From: Spartobacteria bacterium
GTDB lineage: Bacteria; Verrucomicrobiota; Verrucomicrobiia; Chthoniobacterales; UBA6821
DNA: 64,000 nt
Assembly (NCBI GenBank): GCA_947487385.1
Contig: CANKWU010000001.1
Coordinates: 203,421 to 267,420, forward strand
Direction of reading: 5' to 3'
Under the pieces are notes generated by a model that made no database searches, was not told the origin of the DNA, and was given only the letters and a program-made list of their open reading frames with translations. Positions 10,395 to 64,000 of this stretch are shown here, piece by piece; the first letter of the stretch is position 1, and the number at the start of each line of letters is the position of its first letter. Both the position numbers and the translations under genes were made by a program.

Positions 10395-11125
10395 CTCTTT
10401 CCCCCGAAGTGGGCTATCTGAGGAAGAAGGAAGCGGGCAAGATCGGCTGCCGAATCGATGGCCTGGGTGCGAAGCAGATCGAAGGCAAACTCGACGGTCT
10501 TCTCGATGAAAGCATCCGTCCGATCGAACCCCTGGCTATCGTCCTTTAGGAAATACTCGAGAACGCTGCGCCAGTGAATGTAGAGCACCTCGGGGTAGAG
10601 ATTTCCCAACGCACCCCGGCGGGCGATTTCTCCGTGATCCATGCCCTGCTGGATGAGATCGCCGGCAAAATCTTTGAAGCTGTTTTTCAGCCCATCAAGT
10701 GATGAAGGACGGCAGAGGAGGGTGAGTTTTCCAAAGCGCTGCTCCAGAAGGGAGCGGTGCTCCAAAGCCTCTGCGGTGAAGGCAAAGAGGAATGCAAGGT
10801 AGCGTTCCTTCGCCGAGAAGGAACTCCACTCCTTGCCAGCGGATACAGCATGGATGATTGATTCGATCCATGATTTCCAAAAGTGCATTTCAACAGCATC
10901 CAAATTTGGAAAAGCCATGTAGAAATCCTTTTCTCCAATCCCGAGATCCTGACAAAAACGGTGAACCGAGACCGGGGCGTTACCCTCTCTTTGAAGGGTG
11001 GCCATGTAGGCCTCCAAAATCATGGTACGATGATCATTTTTCTGACTGACCTTTGGTGCCTTTGGTGCCTTTGGTGCCTTTGGTGCCTTTGGTGCCGTGG
11101 GTGTTTTTGAGGATTTCGTGGCCAT
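10391..11125 (-). CDS. TetR-like regulator (TetR C-terminal domain family)
   Basis: Degenerate HTH (SVHRFCQDLGIGEKDFYMAFPNL); YFLKDDSQGFDRTDAFIEKTV C-terminus; coupled to the ABC1 kinase. Confidence 0.75.
   Translation of the reverse strand: MATKSSKTPTAPKAPKAPKAPKAPKVSQKNDHRTMILEAYMATLQREGNAPVSVHRFCQDLGIGEKDFYMAFPNLDAVEMHFWKSWIESIIHAVSAGKEWSSFSAKERYLAFLFAFTAEALEHRSLLEQRFGKLTLLCRPSSLDGLKNSFKDFAGDLIQQGMDHGEIARRGALGNLYPEVLYIHWRSVLEYFLKDDSQGFDRTDAFIEKTVEFAFDLLRTQAIDSAADLARFLLPQIAHFGGKS
11051..11095 (-). repeat. 9-bp perfect tandem repeat x5 encoding (APK)5
   Basis: CTTTGGTGC x5 on the + strand, read as GCACCAAAG (Ala-Pro-Lys) in the N-terminus of the TetR-like gene. Confidence 0.95.
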
Positions 11126-44531: not shown

Positions 44532-45851
44532 ATGAAGTGGATTACAAGTCAAATTGGAGCGAGGGAGCATTTTGCCATACCGAGAGTCTTGTATGCGTCG
44601 GGTAAGCTGGAGCGGCTTTACACCGACTTCTGGGCAACGGCACCTTGGAGGCTGATCGGAAAGCTGAGTGGAAATAGCGGTTTGGCGACAAGATGCCACG
44701 CTGATCTCGTAGGGGCCTCGGTCACGGGATTCAATTTCCATGCCTTGAAGTCCTTCCGCCAGCGGTTCGCTAATCCATATGATGGCTTCCTTCAAGTCGG
44801 CGAGGCCTTTGGTCGGGATGTCGTTAAAGACCTTGAGGCTGGGTCTTTCTTTCATTCCTCAGCCTTCAGCCTTCAGCCTTCAGTCTCTAGCCATTCTTGC
44901 CCCCCCTCCATCACCCATCACCTATCACCCATGACCAAAATCTTTTTTGGCTACGACACGGGTTTCCTTGAGCCCGCCCGATGGGTTAAGGCACAGGGAG
45001 GGAAGACGATCGTCTGCCAGATGGATCCGGCCCGCTATGAGGTTGATCTGGTGAAGGAGGAGGAGAAGCGCTGGCCTGGCTGGGCTAAGCGATCAGTCGA
45101 GGTTCCTGAGGCCTACTTCCAGCGTCGTGAAGCTGAGTGGACTGTTGCCGATCTCGTGATGGTAAATTCGGATTGGAGCAAGCAGGGGCTGATCCGCCAA
45201 GGGGTGAAAGAGGAAAAGATCGTTGTGGTGCCGTTGGCTTATGAAGTCACCCAGGACGAGGGAGGGGGGACGAGAGACGAGGGCTATGGGAATGCAGAAA
45301 AAAGCTCTCGACGCTCGACGTTTGACTCCCGACGCCCTTTACGAATTTTGTTTTTGGGGCAGGTCATCCTCCGCAAAGGAATCCAATATTTGATTGAAGC
45401 GGCAAGGATGCTTGAGGAGGAGTCGGTTCATTTCGATGTGGTAGGACCGATCGGGATTGCTGATGAGGGGGTGAAGTCTTCCCCTAAGAATATGACTTTT
45501 CATGGACCGGTTAGCCGTGATCGGACGGAGGAGTTTTACCGCACGGCTGATCTCTTCGTCCTACCGACTGTTTCTGATGGATTTGCACTCACTCAACTTG
45601 AAGCAATGGCTCATCGGTTGCCCGTGATCGCCACGCCAAATTGCGGTGAAGTTGTGACAGATGGAGTGGATGGATTGATCGTTCCGGCCTGTGACCCCAT
45701 GGCGCTTGCTGAGGCATTCCAGTTGCTGATTCAGGATCCTGAGAAACTCCGTGCCATGAATGAAGCAACTAAAGCAAAGGTTCAGAAATTCAGCCTGGCA
45801 AGGCTAGGTGAGAATCTCACTGCTTTGGAGCAGTATTTTCTTTCAATCTAG
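44532..45851 (+). CDS. Glycosyltransferase family 4 with two repeat-derived in-frame insertions
   Basis: LRILFLGQVILRKG, ADLFVLPTVSDGFALTQLEAMA..LPVIAT. Confidence 0.9.
   Translation: MKWITSQIGAREHFAIPRVLYASGKLERLYTDFWATAPWRLIGKLSGNSGLATRCHADLVGASVTGFNFHALKSFRQRFANPYDGFLQVGEAFGRDVVKDLEAGSFFHSSAFSLQPSVSSHSCPPSITHHLSPMTKIFFGYDTGFLEPARWVKAQGGKTIVCQMDPARYEVDLVKEEEKRWPGWAKRSVEVPEAYFQRREAEWTVADLVMVNSDWSKQGLIRQGVKEEKIVVVPLAYEVTQDEGGGTRDEGYGNAEKSSRRSTFDSRRPLRILFLGQVILRKGIQYLIEAARMLEEESVHFDVVGPIGIADEGVKSSPKNMTFHGPVSRDRTEEFYRTADLFVLPTVSDGFALTQLEAMAHRLPVIATPNCGEVVTDGVDGLIVPACDPMALAEAFQLLIQDPEKLRAMNEATKAKVQKFSLARLGENLTALEQYFLSI
44852..44935 (+). repeat. Twelve in-register heptamer units (84 nt) inside the GT4 CDS
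   Basis: tcattcc-(tcagcct)x3-tcagtct-ctagcca-ttcttgc-cccccct-ccatcac-ccatcac-ctatcac-ccatgac. Confidence 0.8.
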
Positions 45852-45878
45852 AGCCCTCGACTCTCGACTATCCCTATC

Positions 45879-45995
45879 ATGACTAGAATCGGCATCCCAT
45901 TCGATAGCTTCGGGACCTATCATTTCGAGCGTCTAAATGTGTCCTTTCGAGTTAGCGATTTTGCAGAATCGTTTTATTATCTTAATGGAGGTTAA
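45879..45995 (+). pseudogene. 5' stub of a GT4 glycosyltransferase gene
   Basis: 38-codon ORF MTRIGIPFDSFGTYHFERLN... aligns by eye with the N-terminus of the downstream GT4 (ITTAIVFWRLGPYHHARMN), then diverges and stops (TAA 45993-45995). Confidence 0.55.
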
Positions 45996-46000
45996 ACGAT

Positions 46001-47329
46001 ATGAATCTGCAAAAATATTTTAATAAAACTCGGCAAGAATACCAAGAAGCCTATGACATGCTTGCATTCTACCTTGCAGATGAAGGACAAGACTCGGCAG
46101 AATACCAACTGCAGTCATTTGCTGAAATTTGGGAGGATGCGGTTACTGACATTCCTTACTACAAGAAGCTTGTCTCAACTAGGAAAGCCCCTAGAAAAAT
46201 TAAATCCTGGGATGATTTCAAAGAAATTCCTGAACTCACAAGAGATATTGTTCATAATAACAGGGCTGAATTGATTCGGTATAAATCCAAGCCCCCTTTG
46301 CTCCGAATGACTGGTGGGTCCACTGGCAATCCTATGCAATTCGGTGTTTCCAGAGAGGAGGGTAGGCGGATTCGATTGTTAAAACTGATTCTCTGGATTC
46401 GGGCCGGATATAAGATAGATTCCAATATTTTTCTTCTATGGGGACATACTCATCTGCTTGGCAATGGAATCCGCAAATATAGGAATATGTTAGTTCGAGG
46501 CGTTAAGGATATCCTTCTAGGATATACTCGTGTTGATGCCCATCATCTTGGCATTGAAACCTGCAGGAAATATGCGCAAAAACTACTATCATCCAAGGCC
46601 AATGCAGTAATCGGATATACAGCTGCGATTGACCAGTTCACTAGATCAATTCCTGAATTTCGTGAGCGTATTCGAGAATTGAACTTAACGTTTGTTATGA
46701 CCTGTTCAGAGATGGCTCCAAGGGAAGATACTTACTCCATCTTAAGCGATTATTTTGGATGTCCGATAATCCAAGAGTATGGTGGAGTGGATCTTGGTCA
46801 AATCGCTATGAAATATCACGATGAACCTTTCAAGGTCTTCCATCGGGAAAATATCGTGGAGTCTCTGGATGCAGAGGCGGAAAAAGAAAGCTCACCTGTC
46901 CTTGTAACAACAACATACAAAAGATACTTTCCCCTGATCAGATATCGTGCAGGAGATCTTTTGCAGGGATGCAAACTCAACACCCAGGGTAATGTCATTT
47001 CGTTTAAGAGTCTTAGTGGGAGAGAAAATGATGTTGTGACACTTCCGAACGGAGAAATTCTACATAGCCTTAGTTTTCTTCATTGTATCAGGGAGGAAAA
47101 AGAGGTGCATCAAGTGCAACTTATTCTCGAAGATCATGGAATGGAAATATTGCTGGTCGTTTCAATGTCCTATTCAGAAGAGGTGGAAAAGCGGATTCGA
47201 GTCCGCCTTTTAAAGCTTTCAAGCAGTCTCACTAATTTCAGTATTCGGACGACAAACGATCTCTCTACTACTATAGCAGGAAAGAGATCGTGGGTGATTG
47301 ACCGGAGGAAGAGGAATGCTGGTGCGTGA
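46001..47329 (+). CDS. Phenylacetate-CoA-ligase-like adenylate-forming enzyme (CapK-like)
   Basis: IPYYK, MTGGSTGNP (P-loop), QEYGGVDLG, FPLIRYRAGD, GRENDVV; AT-rich (24/60 GC at 46021-46080). Confidence 0.85.
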   Translation: MNLQKYFNKTRQEYQEAYDMLAFYLADEGQDSAEYQLQSFAEIWEDAVTDIPYYKKLVSTRKAPRKIKSWDDFKEIPELTRDIVHNNRAELIRYKSKPPLLRMTGGSTGNPMQFGVSREEGRRIRLLKLILWIRAGYKIDSNIFLLWGHTHLLGNGIRKYRNMLVRGVKDILLGYTRVDAHHLGIETCRKYAQKLLSSKANAVIGYTAAIDQFTRSIPEFRERIRELNLTFVMTCSEMAPREDTYSILSDYFGCPIIQEYGGVDLGQIAMKYHDEPFKVFHRENIVESLDAEAEKESSPVLVTTTYKRYFPLIRYRAGDLLQGCKLNTQGNVISFKSLSGRENDVVTLPNGEILHSLSFLHCIREEKEVHQVQLILEDHGMEILLVVSMSYSEEVEKRIRVRLLKLSSSLTNFSIRTTNDLSTTIAGKRSWVIDRRKRNAGA

Positions 47330-48615
47330 CCATGCAGGAGATTACAACTGCTATCGTATTTTGGAGGCTTGGTCCTTACCACCATGCCCGAATGAATGCA
47401 GCGGGAAAGCTTAACAAAACCATCGGACTAGAGGCCTGTGGGATTGAGGATACCTATGCATGGGACACTGTGTCCGGATCTCAAGAATTCGACCGGATCA
47501 CCTTGACGAGAAAATATTCTCCCACAAGAGCCTGGAGAAGAGAACTGCAGCAGCAGATGTTTCAAGAACTAGACCGTATTAGTCCTGATGTCCTAGTTAT
47601 CCCCGGATGGGTGATGCCCGATGCCATTAGTGGATTGTATTGGGCTATAAAAAAGAACATTCCTGTTGTCTGCATGTCTGAGTCCACGCGGTGGGATGCA
47701 GAACGCAGTCCGATCAAAGAATGGGTTAAGAGGAGGATTATCTCCCTCTTCTCGGCGGCGCTGGTAGGTGGAACTCCCCATCGGGACTACATGTTAAATC
47801 TGGGGATGCCTGCCGATCGGATCTTCCTGGGCTATGATGCGGTAGATAACGGATTTTTCTCAGAGGGAGTGAGAAAAATCGTCGAGGGTCGAGAATCGAG
47901 AGTCAAGAGAACTGCAGTACAAGACGAAGCAAGGGAGATAGGATCTAGGAGATTGGAGGTGGGGGAAAGGAAGAAGCCTTACTTCCTTGCATTGGCCCGC
48001 TTCATCGAGAAAAAGAATTTGCCCCGATTACTCCGTGCGTATGCTCACTATCGGGGAAAGAGTTTGCCCTCGACCCTCGACGTTCGACCCTCGACTGCTC
48101 AGTCCACTTGGGATCTGGTCATTATCGGTGATGGGGAACTGCGTTCTGATCTGGAAAAATTGAGCTCGGAACTTGGTCTTGAGGACTGCGTTCAGATGCC
48201 TGGATTCAAACAGTATGAGCAGCTTCCTTCGTACTACGCAAATGCTGGAGCCTTTATTCACGCCAGCACGACGGAGCCGTGGGGACTGGTGATCAACGAA
48301 GCGATGGCATCGGGACTCCCTGTTCTGGTGAGCAACCGCTGTGGATGCGCTACTGATCTGGTACAGGAGGGAGAGAACGGATGGACTTTCGATCCCTTCA
48401 ATGAGGAGCAGATGGCGGATCTGATGCTCAGAATCTCAAGTGATGAAGATGGAAGATTGAAGATGGGAGTCAGAAGTCGTGATATTATCGCTATTTGGGG
48501 TCTGGATCGTTTTGCGTCTGGTCTCACTGGGGCCGTTCAGGCCGCGCTCTCAGAACCTAGGAAGGGCGCCGGATTTCTCAATCGACTTCTTTTATCTGTA
48601 TTGATTCGCAGATAG
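47326..48615 (+). CDS. Glycosyltransferase family 4 with repeat-derived insertions
   Basis: YFLALARFIEKKNLPRLL, IIGDGELR, EPWGLVINEAMASGLPV. Confidence 0.9.
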   Translation: MTMQEITTAIVFWRLGPYHHARMNAAGKLNKTIGLEACGIEDTYAWDTVSGSQEFDRITLTRKYSPTRAWRRELQQQMFQELDRISPDVLVIPGWVMPDAISGLYWAIKKNIPVVCMSESTRWDAERSPIKEWVKRRIISLFSAALVGGTPHRDYMLNLGMPADRIFLGYDAVDNGFFSEGVRKIVEGRESRVKRTAVQDEAREIGSRRLEVGERKKPYFLALARFIEKKNLPRLLRAYAHYRGKSLPSTLDVRPSTAQSTWDLVIIGDGELRSDLEKLSSELGLEDCVQMPGFKQYEQLPSYYANAGAFIHASTTEPWGLVINEAMASGLPVLVSNRCGCATDLVQEGENGWTFDPFNEEQMADLMLRISSDEDGRLKMGVRSRDIIAIWGLDRFASGLTGAVQAALSEPRKGAGFLNRLLLSVLIRR

Positions 48616-49518: not shown

Positions 49519-50730
49519 ATGATTCGCTGCAACAATCTTACAGGGCCAGTTTCCCGTTCTGCGGGGGGACTCTATGAGAGCGTTCGAAGGCTTGCTCAAG
49601 AACTGCGGATTACTGGGATTGAGGTGGCTGTGCTCGGGAGCTTAGACGAGTTTACCAAGACGGATATTGCAGCATGGGATCCTGTGACGATAAGGGCTTT
49701 TAGGACGTTCGGGCCGAGGCAGTTTGGCTATTCCCATGAGTATTTGGAGTTCCTAAAGGCTTATCGCCCCCACCTCATTCATACTCATGGAATCTGGATC
49801 TATTCGAGCATGGCAACCTTAATACATGCAAAGAGGTGTGGGATTCCTTATATGATTTCTCCTCACGGGATGCTCGACCCCTGGGCTCTCAGGAATTCCC
49901 GGTGGAAAAAAATCCCGGCATATTGGCTCTATGAAAGGGCTCATCTGAATAAGGCTTCTGTCATGCGCGCTCTGTGTGAATCGGAGGCAGAGTCGTTCAG
50001 GAAGTTCGGATTAAAAAATCCGATTGCGATCATTCCGAATGGGATTGATTTGCCTGAGGAATCGTCGAGGAAAGCTGCAAATCATGAGGGTAAGAAAACG
50101 CTGCTTTTTCTTGGAAGAATTCATCCGAAGAAGGGACTGTCTAATCTGATTCGTGCTTTTGCCAGAAGTCGGGGATCAAGGGGCGAGAATCACGAGCAAT
50201 GGCATCTGCTTATGGTAGGATGGGATCAGGGAGGACATGAAGATGAGCTTATGCAACTCTGCGGGGAACTTGAGCTGAGTATTAGCCACAAGATACACAA
50301 AAATCACACGGGAAATGATAGAGACGATGCAGATGTCATCTTTTACGGGCCGGCTTTCAAGGAGGAGAAAGAGCTTCTTTTGAACTCGGCCGATGCCTTT
50401 GTCCTTCCTTCCTTCAGCGAAGGACTTCCGATGTCGGTTCTTGAGGCATGGGCGCATGGTCTGCCTGTCGTGATGACCCCTGAGTGTAATCTTCCGGAGG
50501 GGTTTGCCGCCGATGCCGCGATCCGTACCGAGACGGATGTGGAGAGTATCGCTCAGGGGCTCGAGGCTCTCTTCTCCATGAATGATGCCGACTTGAAAGA
50601 GATGGGAGCTAGGGGGAGAGCGCTGGTCCGTCAGAAATTCACTTGGCAGAATGTCGCCGGGCAGATGAAGGATGTCTACGACTGGATGCTGGGTGGAGGA
50701 ATGCCTCCAAGTTGCGTTGAGATAAGCTGA
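49519..50730 (+). CDS. Glycosyltransferase family 4
   Basis: ISPHGMLDPW, LLFLGRIHPKKG, FVLPSFSEGLPMSVLEAWA. Confidence 0.93.
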   Translation: MIRCNNLTGPVSRSAGGLYESVRRLAQELRITGIEVAVLGSLDEFTKTDIAAWDPVTIRAFRTFGPRQFGYSHEYLEFLKAYRPHLIHTHGIWIYSSMATLIHAKRCGIPYMISPHGMLDPWALRNSRWKKIPAYWLYERAHLNKASVMRALCESEAESFRKFGLKNPIAIIPNGIDLPEESSRKAANHEGKKTLLFLGRIHPKKGLSNLIRAFARSRGSRGENHEQWHLLMVGWDQGGHEDELMQLCGELELSISHKIHKNHTGNDRDDADVIFYGPAFKEEKELLLNSADAFVLPSFSEGLPMSVLEAWAHGLPVVMTPECNLPEGFAADAAIRTETDVESIAQGLEALFSMNDADLKEMGARGRALVRQKFTWQNVAGQMKDVYDWMLGGGMPPSCVEIS

Positions 50731-62087: not shown

Positions 62088-63038
62088 ATGATGAAGCGCA
62101 TTTTTTCCCTCTCTGCCACGGCATTGCTGCTGACGATGGTGCAGCCGCTAAGGGCCATCGATCTGCCCGACGGCCGTCTGGCACCCGACACCCTCATGCT
62201 GAACGACGGCAGCGAGCTCCACGGCCTCATCCTCAAGAACGACGCTAAGGGGGTGATTCTCCAACAGCGCATGGGCGAGGTGACGATCCCCAAGTCAAGG
62301 ATCCGCCGGATCATGGACGAGGGAGATGCCTTGGTCTACTTCGCTGAGATCGCCGATCCGGGCAAGCTTCCCCCATGGCGGATGATCGTTCAGGACCTTC
62401 GCACCGATGACAATATCCGATCCTTCAGGCAGGTGCCCGCCACGACGATCGACAATGGTCGTCTGCGCAACATTCCCTACCTCTCCTTCAGGGTGAACAA
62501 GCGCACCGAGCTGAATGTGTACGGCAATCCCGAGGATCCGGTATGCGTGGAGTTCGGTGTCTACGGCAAGGGGCTCGCGCTGAAGCGCTTCAAGAATGTC
62601 GCTAGGGACTATCTGGCCGGTATCCTGACATCCCGGGACGAGATTTCCGCACTGTATGGGATCAGTGACCGCGGCGGTGTCAGGAAAGTCGGAAAGTTCA
62701 CCTTCGAGGTGGCCCCTCAGGATGCACCCGATTCCTACGGGGGATGGTGGATCTCGATCTATGATGCAAAACGCCTCGACCTTGCCCGTGTCTCCGATGA
62801 CGAGTATCGCAGGAACACGCTCCCCTTCCATGTGGTCAATGACTCCCGAGGCGAGCTGAGGATGGATCGCCAAAAGAACTTCGAAAAATTCCTCTCCGGC
62901 ACCACTCAGTCGTGGTCGGAAATGGTTCCTGATCTGAGGGGATTTTACCGCGACTCGATGGGTGACCTGAAGTTGCTCACCGCGAAGGCGACGGACAAGC
63001 TCAAGCAGTCCACCTCCGCCACCACGCCACGCCCATGA
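62088..63038 (+). CDS. Exported hypothetical protein
   Basis: Signal peptide; N-terminal DTLMLNDGSELHGLI...VTIPKSRIRRI beta module; ATGA-coupled to the next GH1. Confidence 0.75.
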   Translation: MMKRIFSLSATALLLTMVQPLRAIDLPDGRLAPDTLMLNDGSELHGLILKNDAKGVILQQRMGEVTIPKSRIRRIMDEGDALVYFAEIADPGKLPPWRMIVQDLRTDDNIRSFRQVPATTIDNGRLRNIPYLSFRVNKRTELNVYGNPEDPVCVEFGVYGKGLALKRFKNVARDYLAGILTSRDEISALYGISDRGGVRKVGKFTFEVAPQDAPDSYGGWWISIYDAKRLDLARVSDDEYRRNTLPFHVVNDSRGELRMDRQKNFEKFLSGTTQSWSEMVPDLRGFYRDSMGDLKLLTAKATDKLKQSTSATTPRP

Positions 63039-64000
63039 CCAAGTCCAAGACCAAGACCAAGACCAAGACCAAGTTCATCCTTCCCGCGGCCGTCGCGGCC
63101 ATCCTGACAATCCTTCCCGGTTGCGTCCTCCATCCGCTCGGCCCGCTCGACAAGGCCCCGGAGAACCGCGCGGAAAAGCTCAAGGGTTACGCCCCCTTCG
63201 CCTGGGGCATCTCCACCAGCAGTCTCCAGTACGAGAACAAGGCGGAAAAGCCCGGTGAGAAGAACTACTATGTGCGCGACTGGGACCTACTCGTTCAGCA
63301 GAAGAAAGCCCCCGTTGTGGGGGATGCCCTCTACACTTGGAGTGACTTTGACAAGGATCTCGCCGCCCTGAAGAAGATCGGCGTCACTCATTACCGCTTC
63401 AGCATCGAGTGGGCCCGTGTCGAACCGCATCCCGGCCACTACAACGAGGAGGCTGTGCAGGGGTATGTTCGTATGTGCCGGAAGCTGAAGGAGGCTGGAA
63501 TCGAGCCGGTTGTGACCCTCTGGCACTTCACCTTCCCTGCTTGGCTCACCGACCCTAAAGATAACTCCAAGACCAATTGGCTTCATCCGTTGGCCCGGGA
63601 ACGCTGGAACCTCTACGTGAAAATGATGGTTGTGGCGACGGCCCCTTACGCCACCTACTATGCACCGGAGAACGAGCCGAACGGGCAGGTTCTTACCGCC
63701 TACATCATAGGTCTCTGGCCTCCCTGCCACACTTTTGATTTTAAGGGCTACAAAGCCGCGACGATCGCCAGCGCAGACATGTTCCGTGATGCCGCGGCAC
63801 GGATTAAGAAAGTGAAGCCCTCGGCCAAGGTTCTGAGCGTTGAGGCGCTCCCTTGGTGGACACCCGCCCCACTCGATCCTGGCGGTCTGCTCTACAATAC
63901 GGTCATGCATTCCAATTTTGACCACCTCGACCGGATCTACGATGTCTGTGATATTATTGGATTTAACTATTACTACAGTCAGATGGCCGGTCCTCTGAGT
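63035..64000 (+). CDS. Glycoside hydrolase family 1, lipoprotein, 3'-partial (absent from the ORF track)
   Basis: Manual translation: MTKSKTKTKTKTKFILPAAVAAILTILPGC...FAWGISTSSLQYE...RFSIEWARVEP...TLWHFTFP...ENEPNG...GFNYYYSQ; open to the window end. Confidence 0.9.
   Translation, partial: MTKSKTKTKTKTKFILPAAVAAILTILPGCVLHPLGPLDKAPENRAEKLKGYAPFAWGISTSSLQYENKAEKPGEKNYYVRDWDLLVQQKKAPVVGDALYTWSDFDKDLAALKKIGVTHYRFSIEWARVEPHPGHYNEEAVQGYVRMCRKLKEAGIEPVVTLWHFTFPAWLTDPKDNSKTNWLHPLARERWNLYVKMMVVATAPYATYYAPENEPNGQVLTAYIIGLWPPCHTFDFKGYKAATIASADMFRDAAARIKKVKPSAKVLSVEALPWWTPAPLDPGGLLYNTVMHSNFDHLDRIYDVCDIIGFNYYYSQMAGPLS
63038..63073 (+). repeat. Hexamer tandem repeat (ACCAAG)n encoding TK repeats
   Basis: accaag-tccaag-(accaag)x4 in the signal-peptide n-region of the GH1. 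Confidence 0.9.

Follow-up and report, generated by a model that had tools for sequence, protein, structure and literature searches.

What are two mutually inverted heptamer arrays doing inside the coding sequence of a glycosyltransferase, on either side of one of its most conserved segments? The question is raised by a 64,000-nucleotide (nt) stretch of DNA from a Spartobacteria bacterium, hereafter the window (contig C1 positions 203421-267420 of an assembly of 2.05 Mb, 48 contigs and 54.8% G+C), the nearest relatives of which are freshwater 'Spartobacteria'/Chthoniobacterales metagenome-assembled genomes. Within a polysaccharide locus of this window, an open reading frame (ORF) of 429 residues with a GTG start (47326-48615; like the arms, the segment between them and the other heptamer arrays of this locus given below, on the + strand) encodes a glycosyltransferase of the GT4 (GT-B fold) type, and two short period-7 arrays, the arms, stand in opposite orientation within it. 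Our analysis indicates that the arms are probably two ordinary, separate heptamer microsatellites of a single TCGAGGG/CCCTCGA family, similar in kind to the short tandemly repeated repetitive (STRR) sequences of cyanobacteria, and that their inverted arrangement is most likely incidental.

The left arm, at the position denoted site A (47881-47909), was called by Tandem Repeats Finder (TRF) as (GTCGAGA)x4.1 with period 7 and 81% matches; its sense strand is purine-rich (gtcgagg-gtcgaga-atcgaga-gtcaaga, 47881-47908) and encodes VEGRESRVKR (residues 186-195). The right arm, at site B (48067-48095), was called as (CCCTCGA)x4.1, again with period 7 and 81% matches, and is pyrimidine-rich on the sense strand (ccctcga-ccctcga-cgttcga-ccctcga, 48067-48094), encoding PSTLDVRPST (residues 248-257). 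A repeat search pairs the arms as inverted repeats of 27 nt with 81% complementarity and a spacing of 161 nt, including a perfect core of 14 nt (47880-47893/48069-48082). The encoded peptides stand either side of PYFLALARFIEKKNLPRLL, and the interval at 47977-48066 (PYFLALARFIEKKNLPRLLRAYAHYRGK) corresponds to the first strand and first helix of the C-terminal domain, marked by invariant alignment columns and by the structural model described below. A two-unit copy, CCCTCGA-CTCTCGA, is found at 45854-45867, just after the stop of the upstream gene GT4 no. 1 (44532-45851). In all these respects (letters and positions of the arms, their near reverse complementarity at a distance of about 160 nt, the conserved segment between them and the intergenic copy), the original prediction, which had been made from this DNA alone, was borne out exactly. 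The arrangement also exceeds what chance would provide: the 14-mer pattern, with up to two mismatches, has 6 matches in the window against 1.03 expected, a number reached by 0 of 100 shuffles, and the genome has ~17 distinct loci at which perfect inverted repeats of 14 nt or more are separated by 20-300 nt, whereas Markov-2 simulations yield 2-5. Within the source genome, four TCGA words spaced at 7 nt are confined to the right arm, and 4 of its ~8 TCGA-family arrays fall within 3 kb at this locus.

The product of the host gene matches Pfam domains Glycos_transf_1 (PF00534; E=7e-36, 123.8 bits, cutoff 26.4) and Glyco_trans_1_4 (E=3e-25). An AlphaFold2 (AF2) model built from a 72-sequence alignment (mean predicted local distance difference test score (pLDDT) 88.4, predicted template modelling score 0.87) consists of two Rossmann-like halves with alternating strands and helices, and WaaG is among the distant GT4 hits in the PDB. 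The C-terminal Pfam domain and the modelled two-Rossmann architecture are those expected of a GT4 enzyme, to which we assign the gene on these predictions. In the model, the segment between the arms is a confident core (strand 219-223 and helix 232-246, pLDDT 93-98) with columns A224, R225, F226, K229, K230, N231, L232, L235 and A238 invariant in the 72 homologues. The right arm falls within loop 247-262 (pLDDT ~64), between helix 232-246 and strand 263-267, whereas the left arm forms the second half of helix 175-199, along which pLDDT drops from 87 to 61 and after which residues 199-213 are modelled as disordered (pLDDT <50). The expectation that both arms are loop insertions thus held fully for the right arm, the left one being modelled as a helix end followed by disorder. 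That the arms are neutral for the protein is plausible in the weaker form of near-neutrality, because they occupy hypervariable, indel-rich and low-confidence positions around the invariant core. Within that core, residue 223 (codon at 47993) is Leu in the source genome (FLALARF), whereas at least 90% of the 72 homologues, as well as the 99% identical allele P0122 (FLASARF), have Ser.

Comparison with 37 orthologues from genomic loci and ~120 homologues from a protein collection places the arms within a recurrent pattern. Two hypervariable, indel-rich stretches, site A (query residues ~183-217) and site B (~244-261), flank the near-invariant PYFLASARFIEKKNL...AYA.YR core. The arm segments are not conserved in orthologues devoid of heptamer periodicity. 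Differing heptamer arrays occupy the same four positions of the enzyme (sites A-D) from the genus out to distant Verrucomicrobiota. At site A, the array is perfect in orthologue L080 ((GTCGAGA)x4.1, 100%), and other lineages carry EVRSQKSEVRS = (GAAGTCA)n, EIRNSKFEIR = (CGAAATT)n or IRNPKSEIRNP = (AAATCCG)n. Site B is of the CCCTCGA type in the source genome, L004 and L014 and of the GTCGAGG type in L001, L005, L080 and L085, all within the genus, and array peptides such as KSEIGNRKSEI and KAESGKQKAE are found there in other lineages. Site C (query residues ~271-285; window ~48136-48180) is the helix following GDG, LRSDLEKLSSELGL in the host enzyme; in many Verrucomicrobiota this helix is encoded by a perfect (AACTCTC)x4.3-4.9 array yielding LNSQLSTLNL, or by (TCTGATC)n yielding SDLCRLISDL (perfect arrays are present in, among others, loci L010, L015, L018, L022, L039, L044, L046 and L052). 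Heptamer arrays can therefore overwrite a folded amphipathic helix and are not confined to loops. Site D carries (GAAGATG)x3.1 in the host gene (48445-48466, called by TRF), encoding EDGRLKMG, and array peptides ISDFRYPISDF, STLNSQLST and WEMEDGRWKMG in orthologues. A second, degenerate purine-rich array (GGGAGAT-like; 47933-47974, encoding EIGSRRLEVGERK, which is modelled as disordered) may complete site A of the host gene; it was read directly from the sequence and called neither by TRF nor by a lag-7 scan, and is only a suggestion, although the homologous module of L098, EEARKIGVRRWEMGGEKQ, is a clear GGAGATG array.

If the two arms were a functional pair, they would be expected to travel together. 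The search for alleles lacking one or both of them, which the original prediction had proposed, was successful. Among 110 distinct site A/site B peptide combinations classed for the TCGAGGG family, the arrangement of the source genome (purine-type at site A, pyrimidine-type at site B) accounts for 8, whereas 4 have the left arm together with a same-strand, purine-type array at site B, 15 have the pyrimidine-type and 19 the purine-type array at site B with none at site A, and 64 have neither. On a gene tree built from the remainder of the protein, outside sites A and B, the state of site B changed at least 28 times and that of site A at least 7 times, and sister alleles differ in the orientation of site B. 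The arms assort independently, and the pair is not a functional or co-inherited unit.

The behaviour of the arms in close relatives is equally informative as to their short-term dynamics. Alleles L093 (99.9% DNA identity), L090 (97-98%) and L092 (89%) all retain four units in both arms with the frame open. Differences within the arms are point substitutions (CCCTTGA and TCCTCGA units in L090; GTCGAGA, GCCGAGA and CTCTCGA in L092), which accumulate at about the rate of the flanking sequence and lack a compensatory pattern.

These observations bear directly on the most obvious reading of an inverted repeat, namely, that the arms form a selected long-range mRNA stem or a DNA cruciform around the 160-nt core, controlling translation, mRNA decay or DNA topology. 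The potential for pairing in the mRNA, as had been suggested, is real: the minimum-free-energy fold of 47870-48110 pairs the arms, and the arm-arm RNA duplex (-39.0 kcal/mol, and -34 to -41 kcal/mol in two close alleles) is far more stable than that of shuffled arms (-15.1 +/- 3.5 kcal/mol), so that the complementarity clearly exceeds shuffled controls. Moreover, the order of a purine-rich array followed by a pyrimidine-rich one recurs in GT4 no. 1 (45253/45307) and in alleles of site B. However, the 241-nt fold as a whole is no more stable than expected (z = -1.31), with 19 of 200 shuffles folding as stably as the native sequence. The corresponding dyad of GT4 no. 1 (45245-45345) likewise yielded z = -1.31, and no significant structure was obtained when the single arms and the intergenic copy were folded. 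Most alleles do without the pair, its members assort independently, site B often carries the same-strand form, and the substitutions that separate close alleles do not compensate one another. Where site B of another allele holds a purine-rich array followed by a pyrimidine-rich one, the two come from families that are not complementary (AAAGTAA with CCCTCGA; GTCGAGC with CTTCAGC), which implies that this polarity does not come from pairing. In addition, extrusion of a cruciform is strongly disfavoured by a spacer as long as 160 nt, and stems within genes are unwound by translating ribosomes. A selected stem or cruciform is thus very unlikely. A conserved cis-acting RNA structure was rejected as a class on the same fold statistic and on the presence of both arms in so few of the combinations.

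Even less credit can be given to the notion of an invertible segment within the gene, with the arms as its inverted repeats, whose flipping would toggle the enzyme and thereby vary a surface polysaccharide. Polysaccharide loci are typical targets of phase variation, and inverted repeats with a perfect 14-nt core do flank a segment of a gene from such a locus. Nevertheless, every inverted version of the interval contains stop codons, so that inversion could produce only an OFF state, and a recoding inverton was rejected. Furthermore, the orientation is forward in all 123 assembled homologues, although a minority form would be hidden in assemblies; the genes within ~6 kb in the syntenic strain L090 include no recombinase or invertase; and the arms match each other imperfectly (81%), with no more than one of them present in most alleles. 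We regard this alternative as extremely unlikely. Phase variation by change in repeat number was rejected as well, since arm length is fixed across alleles that are 89-99.9% identical, and these alleles show no sign of hypermutability. The same applies to a contingency gene, for which neither a slip-prone tract (both arms comprise 4.1 units at 81% matches) nor variation in copy number (four units and an open frame in all three close alleles) was found. Collectively, neither a hairpin nor a switch within the host gene is supported.

If the arms do not change by slippage between close alleles, how do the loops come to differ so profoundly between more distant ones? Recombination between alleles clearly shuffles them. 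Alleles P0036 and P0057 share 96-100% identity across most of the gene, with a few short stretches at 76-93%, and yet differ at site B by an entirely distinct 120-nt patch, which in one of the pair consists of an AAAGTAA array followed by (CCCTCGA)x4 and in the other of (GTCGAGC)x4 followed by (CTTCAGC)x4. P0010 and P0055 differ by a tract of ~400 nt with its right edge immediately after site B, and the site-B module of P0057 is a chimera of VIRQVERRSSSVEG, the left half of that in P0014, and LNSVFTSSDTSAFSLQSSV, the right half of that in P0020, joined at the end of a shared TCGA array. On a larger scale, a single recent structural difference separates the source genome from L090: a 1830-nt segment (45830-47659) is present in place of 518 nt, with breakpoints at 45830 and 47660. 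This segment spans the final 22 nt of GT4 no. 1, the intergenic heptamer, a gene for a 442-residue protein (46001-47329; its Pfam search returned no match) and the first 334 nt of the host gene; accordingly, the ~110 N-terminal residues of the two host enzymes are 28% identical and the remainder 93-99%.

Such joints raise the possibility that the arrays are active joints for module exchange, sites A and B being hypervariable cassette sites of a mosaic gene. The chimeric site-B module, the sharp-edged replacement of patches between alleles that are otherwise 96-100% identical, the recurrence of one site-B module on differing backgrounds, and the presence of the two-unit heptamer within the 1.8-kb segment that differs from L090, 24 nt from its left edge, are all consistent with this idea. 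Conversely, when all pairs of alleles were scanned for change points with the loops masked, only 3 of 22 strong single breakpoints lay near site B and 12 near residues 100-129, without clear enrichment at arrays; the right-hand breakpoint relative to L090 (47660) falls within conserved, unremarkable coding sequence; and ordinary homologous recombination guided by conserved flanks would mimic cassette sites without any role for the repeats. We consider an active role of the arrays as joints unlikely. The related suggestion that the arms are recombination endpoints survives in a different and weaker version: some joints of allele recombination lie at array edges, whereas the breakpoints relative to L090 lie away from the arms. 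The arms cannot be deletion endpoints, as had also been put forward, because inverted repeats do not mediate deletion, and the interval between them holds the invariant residues A224, R225, F226, K229, K230 and N231.

Several observations on the surroundings of the host gene may be added here. Besides GT4 no. 1, the polysaccharide locus contains another GT4 gene (49519-50730). An orphan start at 45880 (MTRIGIPFDSFGTYHFERLN) resembles the other type of N-terminus of the host enzyme. In alleles L094-L099, from other lake metagenomes, the orthologue of the host gene is flanked by differing small toxin-antitoxin or defence-like cassettes (PhdYeFM/PIN, NTP_transf_2/HEPN, MazE/PemK, AbiEi_4 and RHH/PIN), which are present neither in the window nor in L090.

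The view of the arms as ordinary microsatellites draws support from the abundance of period-7 arrays throughout this genome and its relatives. Among arrays of at least 4 copies called by TRF in the whole source genome, 32 have period 7, compared with 14 of period 6 and 13 of period 8. In the relatives, 837 kb of sequence around orthologues shows this excess to an extreme degree: period 7 accounts for 252 arrays of at least 3 copies, compared with 37 for period 8 and 7 for period 6. The source genome contains ~30 canonical heptamer units, including AAGGCTG, ACCCTCG/ACTCTCG, AAAAGTG, AAGATGG/AGATAGG, CCATCTT and GTCGAGA/CCCTCGA. By crude gene calls, 46 of 59 genomic heptamer arrays are found either 5' of a gene or among the initial 70 codons of a stop-to-stop ORF. 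Arrays deep inside ORFs number only ~9-10 in the 2.05-Mb genome, and 6 of these are located in two adjacent GT4 genes of the window, the others occurring in the interdomain linker of MutL, at the C-terminus of an exonuclease and in a third GT-like ORF, where the array again occupies the interdomain site. The TCGA heptamer family is genus-wide, with arrays of at least 4 units in 20 of 23 genomes. In two sister genomes, G012 and G004, TCGA-type arrays reach 16-18 perfect or near-perfect units (G012:C2:92787-92902; G004:C16:236972-237094; G004:C7:23407-23515), which implies that the family can expand greatly, and the four-unit TCGA pattern has 132 matches in G012 compared with 1 in the source genome. 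Pairing is not a general property of these repeats: among 320 nearby array pairs in the loci, 42 are of the same family in direct and 19 in inverted orientation, so that a rule by which heptamer arrays come as complementary pairs has to be rejected. Random pairs are of the same family in direct orientation in 6.6% and in inverted orientation in 3.0% of cases, and nearby pairs show about twice these frequencies in either orientation.

The second gene with deep arrays, GT4 no. 1, provides an internal parallel. At the interdomain linker equivalent to that of the host enzyme, it carries a GACGAGG-like purine-rich run (45253-45283, detected by the lag-7 scan) and (CTCGACG)x4.1 (45307-45335, by TRF and pattern match), the latter encoding RRSTFDSRRP; these runs (45253-45335) belong to the unit family of the arms. 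Further upstream, TRF called two in-frame arrays, (TCAGCCT)x3.6 and (CCATCAC)x4.1, at 44859-44936.

What decides which strand of a unit is read at a given site? Of 38 orthologues, 36 have a purine-rich sense strand at site A, 28 at site B and 17 at site C, and not one pyrimidine-type TCGA array occupies site A among the 110 combinations. This strand bias by site is consistent with filtering through the encoded peptide. Purine-rich arrays yield peptides composed of E, R, K, G, S and V, which are suited to the extension of a helix, as at site A, and pyrimidine-rich arrays peptides of P, S, T and L, which suit a loop or the Leu-rich amphipathic helix of site C. Since three heptamers amount to 21 nt, or 7 residues, a single array encodes a heptad-periodic peptide.

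Taken together, these data suggest the following scenario. TCGAGGG/CCCTCGA would be part of a small repeat vocabulary of the genus, in a lineage where ~30-nt arrays of period 7 appear to arise and turn over far more often than those of other periods. Inside genes, such arrays would survive only in frame and only where the fold tolerates a low-complexity peptide, the permissive places in this GT-B enzyme presumably being the interdomain helix or linker (site A) and the loop that follows helix 1 of the C-terminal domain (site B). The encoded peptide would set the tolerated strand, nearly always the purine-rich one at site A and either one at site B, and an inverted layout then follows whenever a single unit family fills both sites in this manner. 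In the short term, the arms would keep their length and evolve by point mutation; over longer timescales, loops would be replaced wholesale, mainly through recombination between alleles of the population, joined at conserved flanks or at arrays that they share. The capacity of the arms to pair would be a by-product rather than a selected RNA or DNA structure.

Several points weigh against this account. The left-arm family is found only where site B holds the TCGAGGG family (12 of 12 combinations, compared with 34 of 98 for the rest; Fisher p = 1.1e-5, uncorrected for phylogeny), and this co-occurrence is not predicted by purely independent origin and makes local copying between the two sites, possibly in reverse complement, likely. 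In the source genome, inverted same-family pairs make up 3 of 11 nearby pairs, against ~5% expected, although the numbers are small; taken with the co-occurrence and with the concentration of about half of the TCGA arrays within 3 kb, this suggests that a unit family has been copied locally, in one orientation or the other, which simple slippage does not explain. Nor does simple slippage obviously predict that array lengths centre on 4-5 units (~30 nt), as they do in coding and non-coding DNA alike. The generating mechanism itself, polymerase slippage with a 7-nt step, is a published proposal whose step is only inferred here. A more far-reaching possibility is that the Verrucomicrobiota have an active process, beyond passive slippage, which would write ~30-nt arrays in 7-nt steps into fixed permissive sites, drawing on a small vocabulary specific to each genome, and copy them between neighbouring sites, at times to the other strand, for instance through template switching in the course of repair; the left arm would then be a reverse-complement copy of an array long resident at site B, and the arrays would subsequently serve as joints for module exchange between alleles. 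In our judgement such active writing is quite unlikely, and the reading of the arms as two separate microsatellites, with some local copying, remains the preferred one.

Other repeats of the genome are mentioned for completeness. A gene-free stretch of 600 nt (G000:C15:4120-4740; locus L100 320-940) contains a GGGAGAT/GGAAGAT array as well as three TCGAGGG arrays that all lie on one strand; it matches nothing in Rfam and lacks a convincing ORF. The window also includes the perfect tandem repeat (CCTTTGGTG)x5.2 (100%, 11050-11103) and (CCAAGA)x6.8 (91%, 63033-63073). On contigs C4 (15-230) and C19 (36182-36720), a palindromic core, CCCCCGCGCGGGGG, recurs every ~66 nt, resembling two CRISPR arrays. 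Finally, an inverted-repeat end, AATATGGAACTCAG, is common to five loci (C6:27711, C9:63038, C29:109, C33:4621 and C37:3789), with arms 90-230 nt apart, and may define a small family of elements resembling miniature inverted-repeat transposable elements.

How do these arrays relate to heptamer repeats of other bacteria? The STRR heptanucleotides of heterocystous cyanobacteria (Calothrix, Anabaena/Nostoc) were reportedly described by Mazel and colleagues in 1990, and units of STRR1-3 are CCCCAGT, TTGGTCA and CAACAGT. They consist of tandem 7-nt units of several families at many dispersed, mostly non-coding loci. The source genome presents the same picture, with tandem units in at least 3 copies (4.1 in each arm by TRF), a period-7 excess made up of several dispersed unit families, and a predominantly non-coding location (the 46 of 59 arrays above, by crude gene calls). 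Nonetheless, the arrays described here differ in unit sequences and in phylum, are short (~4 units), are often translated in frame at fixed sites of an enzyme and are replaced allele by allele. Membership in STRR1-3 proper was rejected, because the units GTCGAGA/CCCTCGA, AAGGCTG, AAAAGTG and CCATCTT differ from those above: the repeats are of the same kind and not of the same sequence family. Contingency loci likewise contain simple sequence repeats (SSRs) inside surface-polysaccharide glycosyltransferase genes, as in the case of tetranucleotides in lipooligosaccharide genes of Haemophilus influenzae, and in both cases a repeat with a unit length not divisible by 3 lies within a polysaccharide-locus glycosyltransferase gene. 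However, contingency repeats are long, perfect and variable in copy number between close strains, whereas the arms comprise four imperfect units (81%) of fixed length.

The abundance of heptamer repeats in bacteria has long been known. Heptameric SSRs are over-represented in many bacteria, for which slippage related to the polymerase footprint has been proposed, and the Calothrix heptanucleotides are mentioned in the same work (PMC4692102). The units GGGAATC of Xanthomonas and GGGGA(T/C)T of Nostoc PCC 7120 (Rehm et al. 2015, PMC4692102) share with the present arrays a lineage-specific excess of period 7, extensive variation in length and sequence at the same sites among related strains, and occasional inverted arrangements, those in Xanthomonas being noted as potential stem-loops or cruciforms. 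They are, however, intergenic, G-quadruplex-forming and dominated by one unit, whereas the source arrays belong to many families, are translated and are not of the G-quadruplex type (TCGAGGG has runs of three G only). The abundant TAACTGA direct repeats of marine Beggiatoaceae are similarly dispersed upstream of genes, and a regulatory role has been proposed for them; they differ in being intergenic repeats of a single conserved unit, linked by the authors to particular proteins (PMC4679880), and nothing comparable to that protein link was identified for the source arrays. A literature search on heptanucleotide repeats in Verrucomicrobia returned nothing specific.

The significance of the locus lies in the recurrence of translated repeats at a few permissive sites of one enzyme family, with differing units and a strand that depends on the site. 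The heptamer repeats are stable in the short term and replaced as whole modules in the longer term, which makes orthologous GT4 genes a convenient natural system for following the birth, copying and turnover of such repeats. The findings also carry a warning for annotation and structure prediction, in that low-complexity inserts in verrucomicrobial proteins are often repeat DNA rather than evolved linkers.

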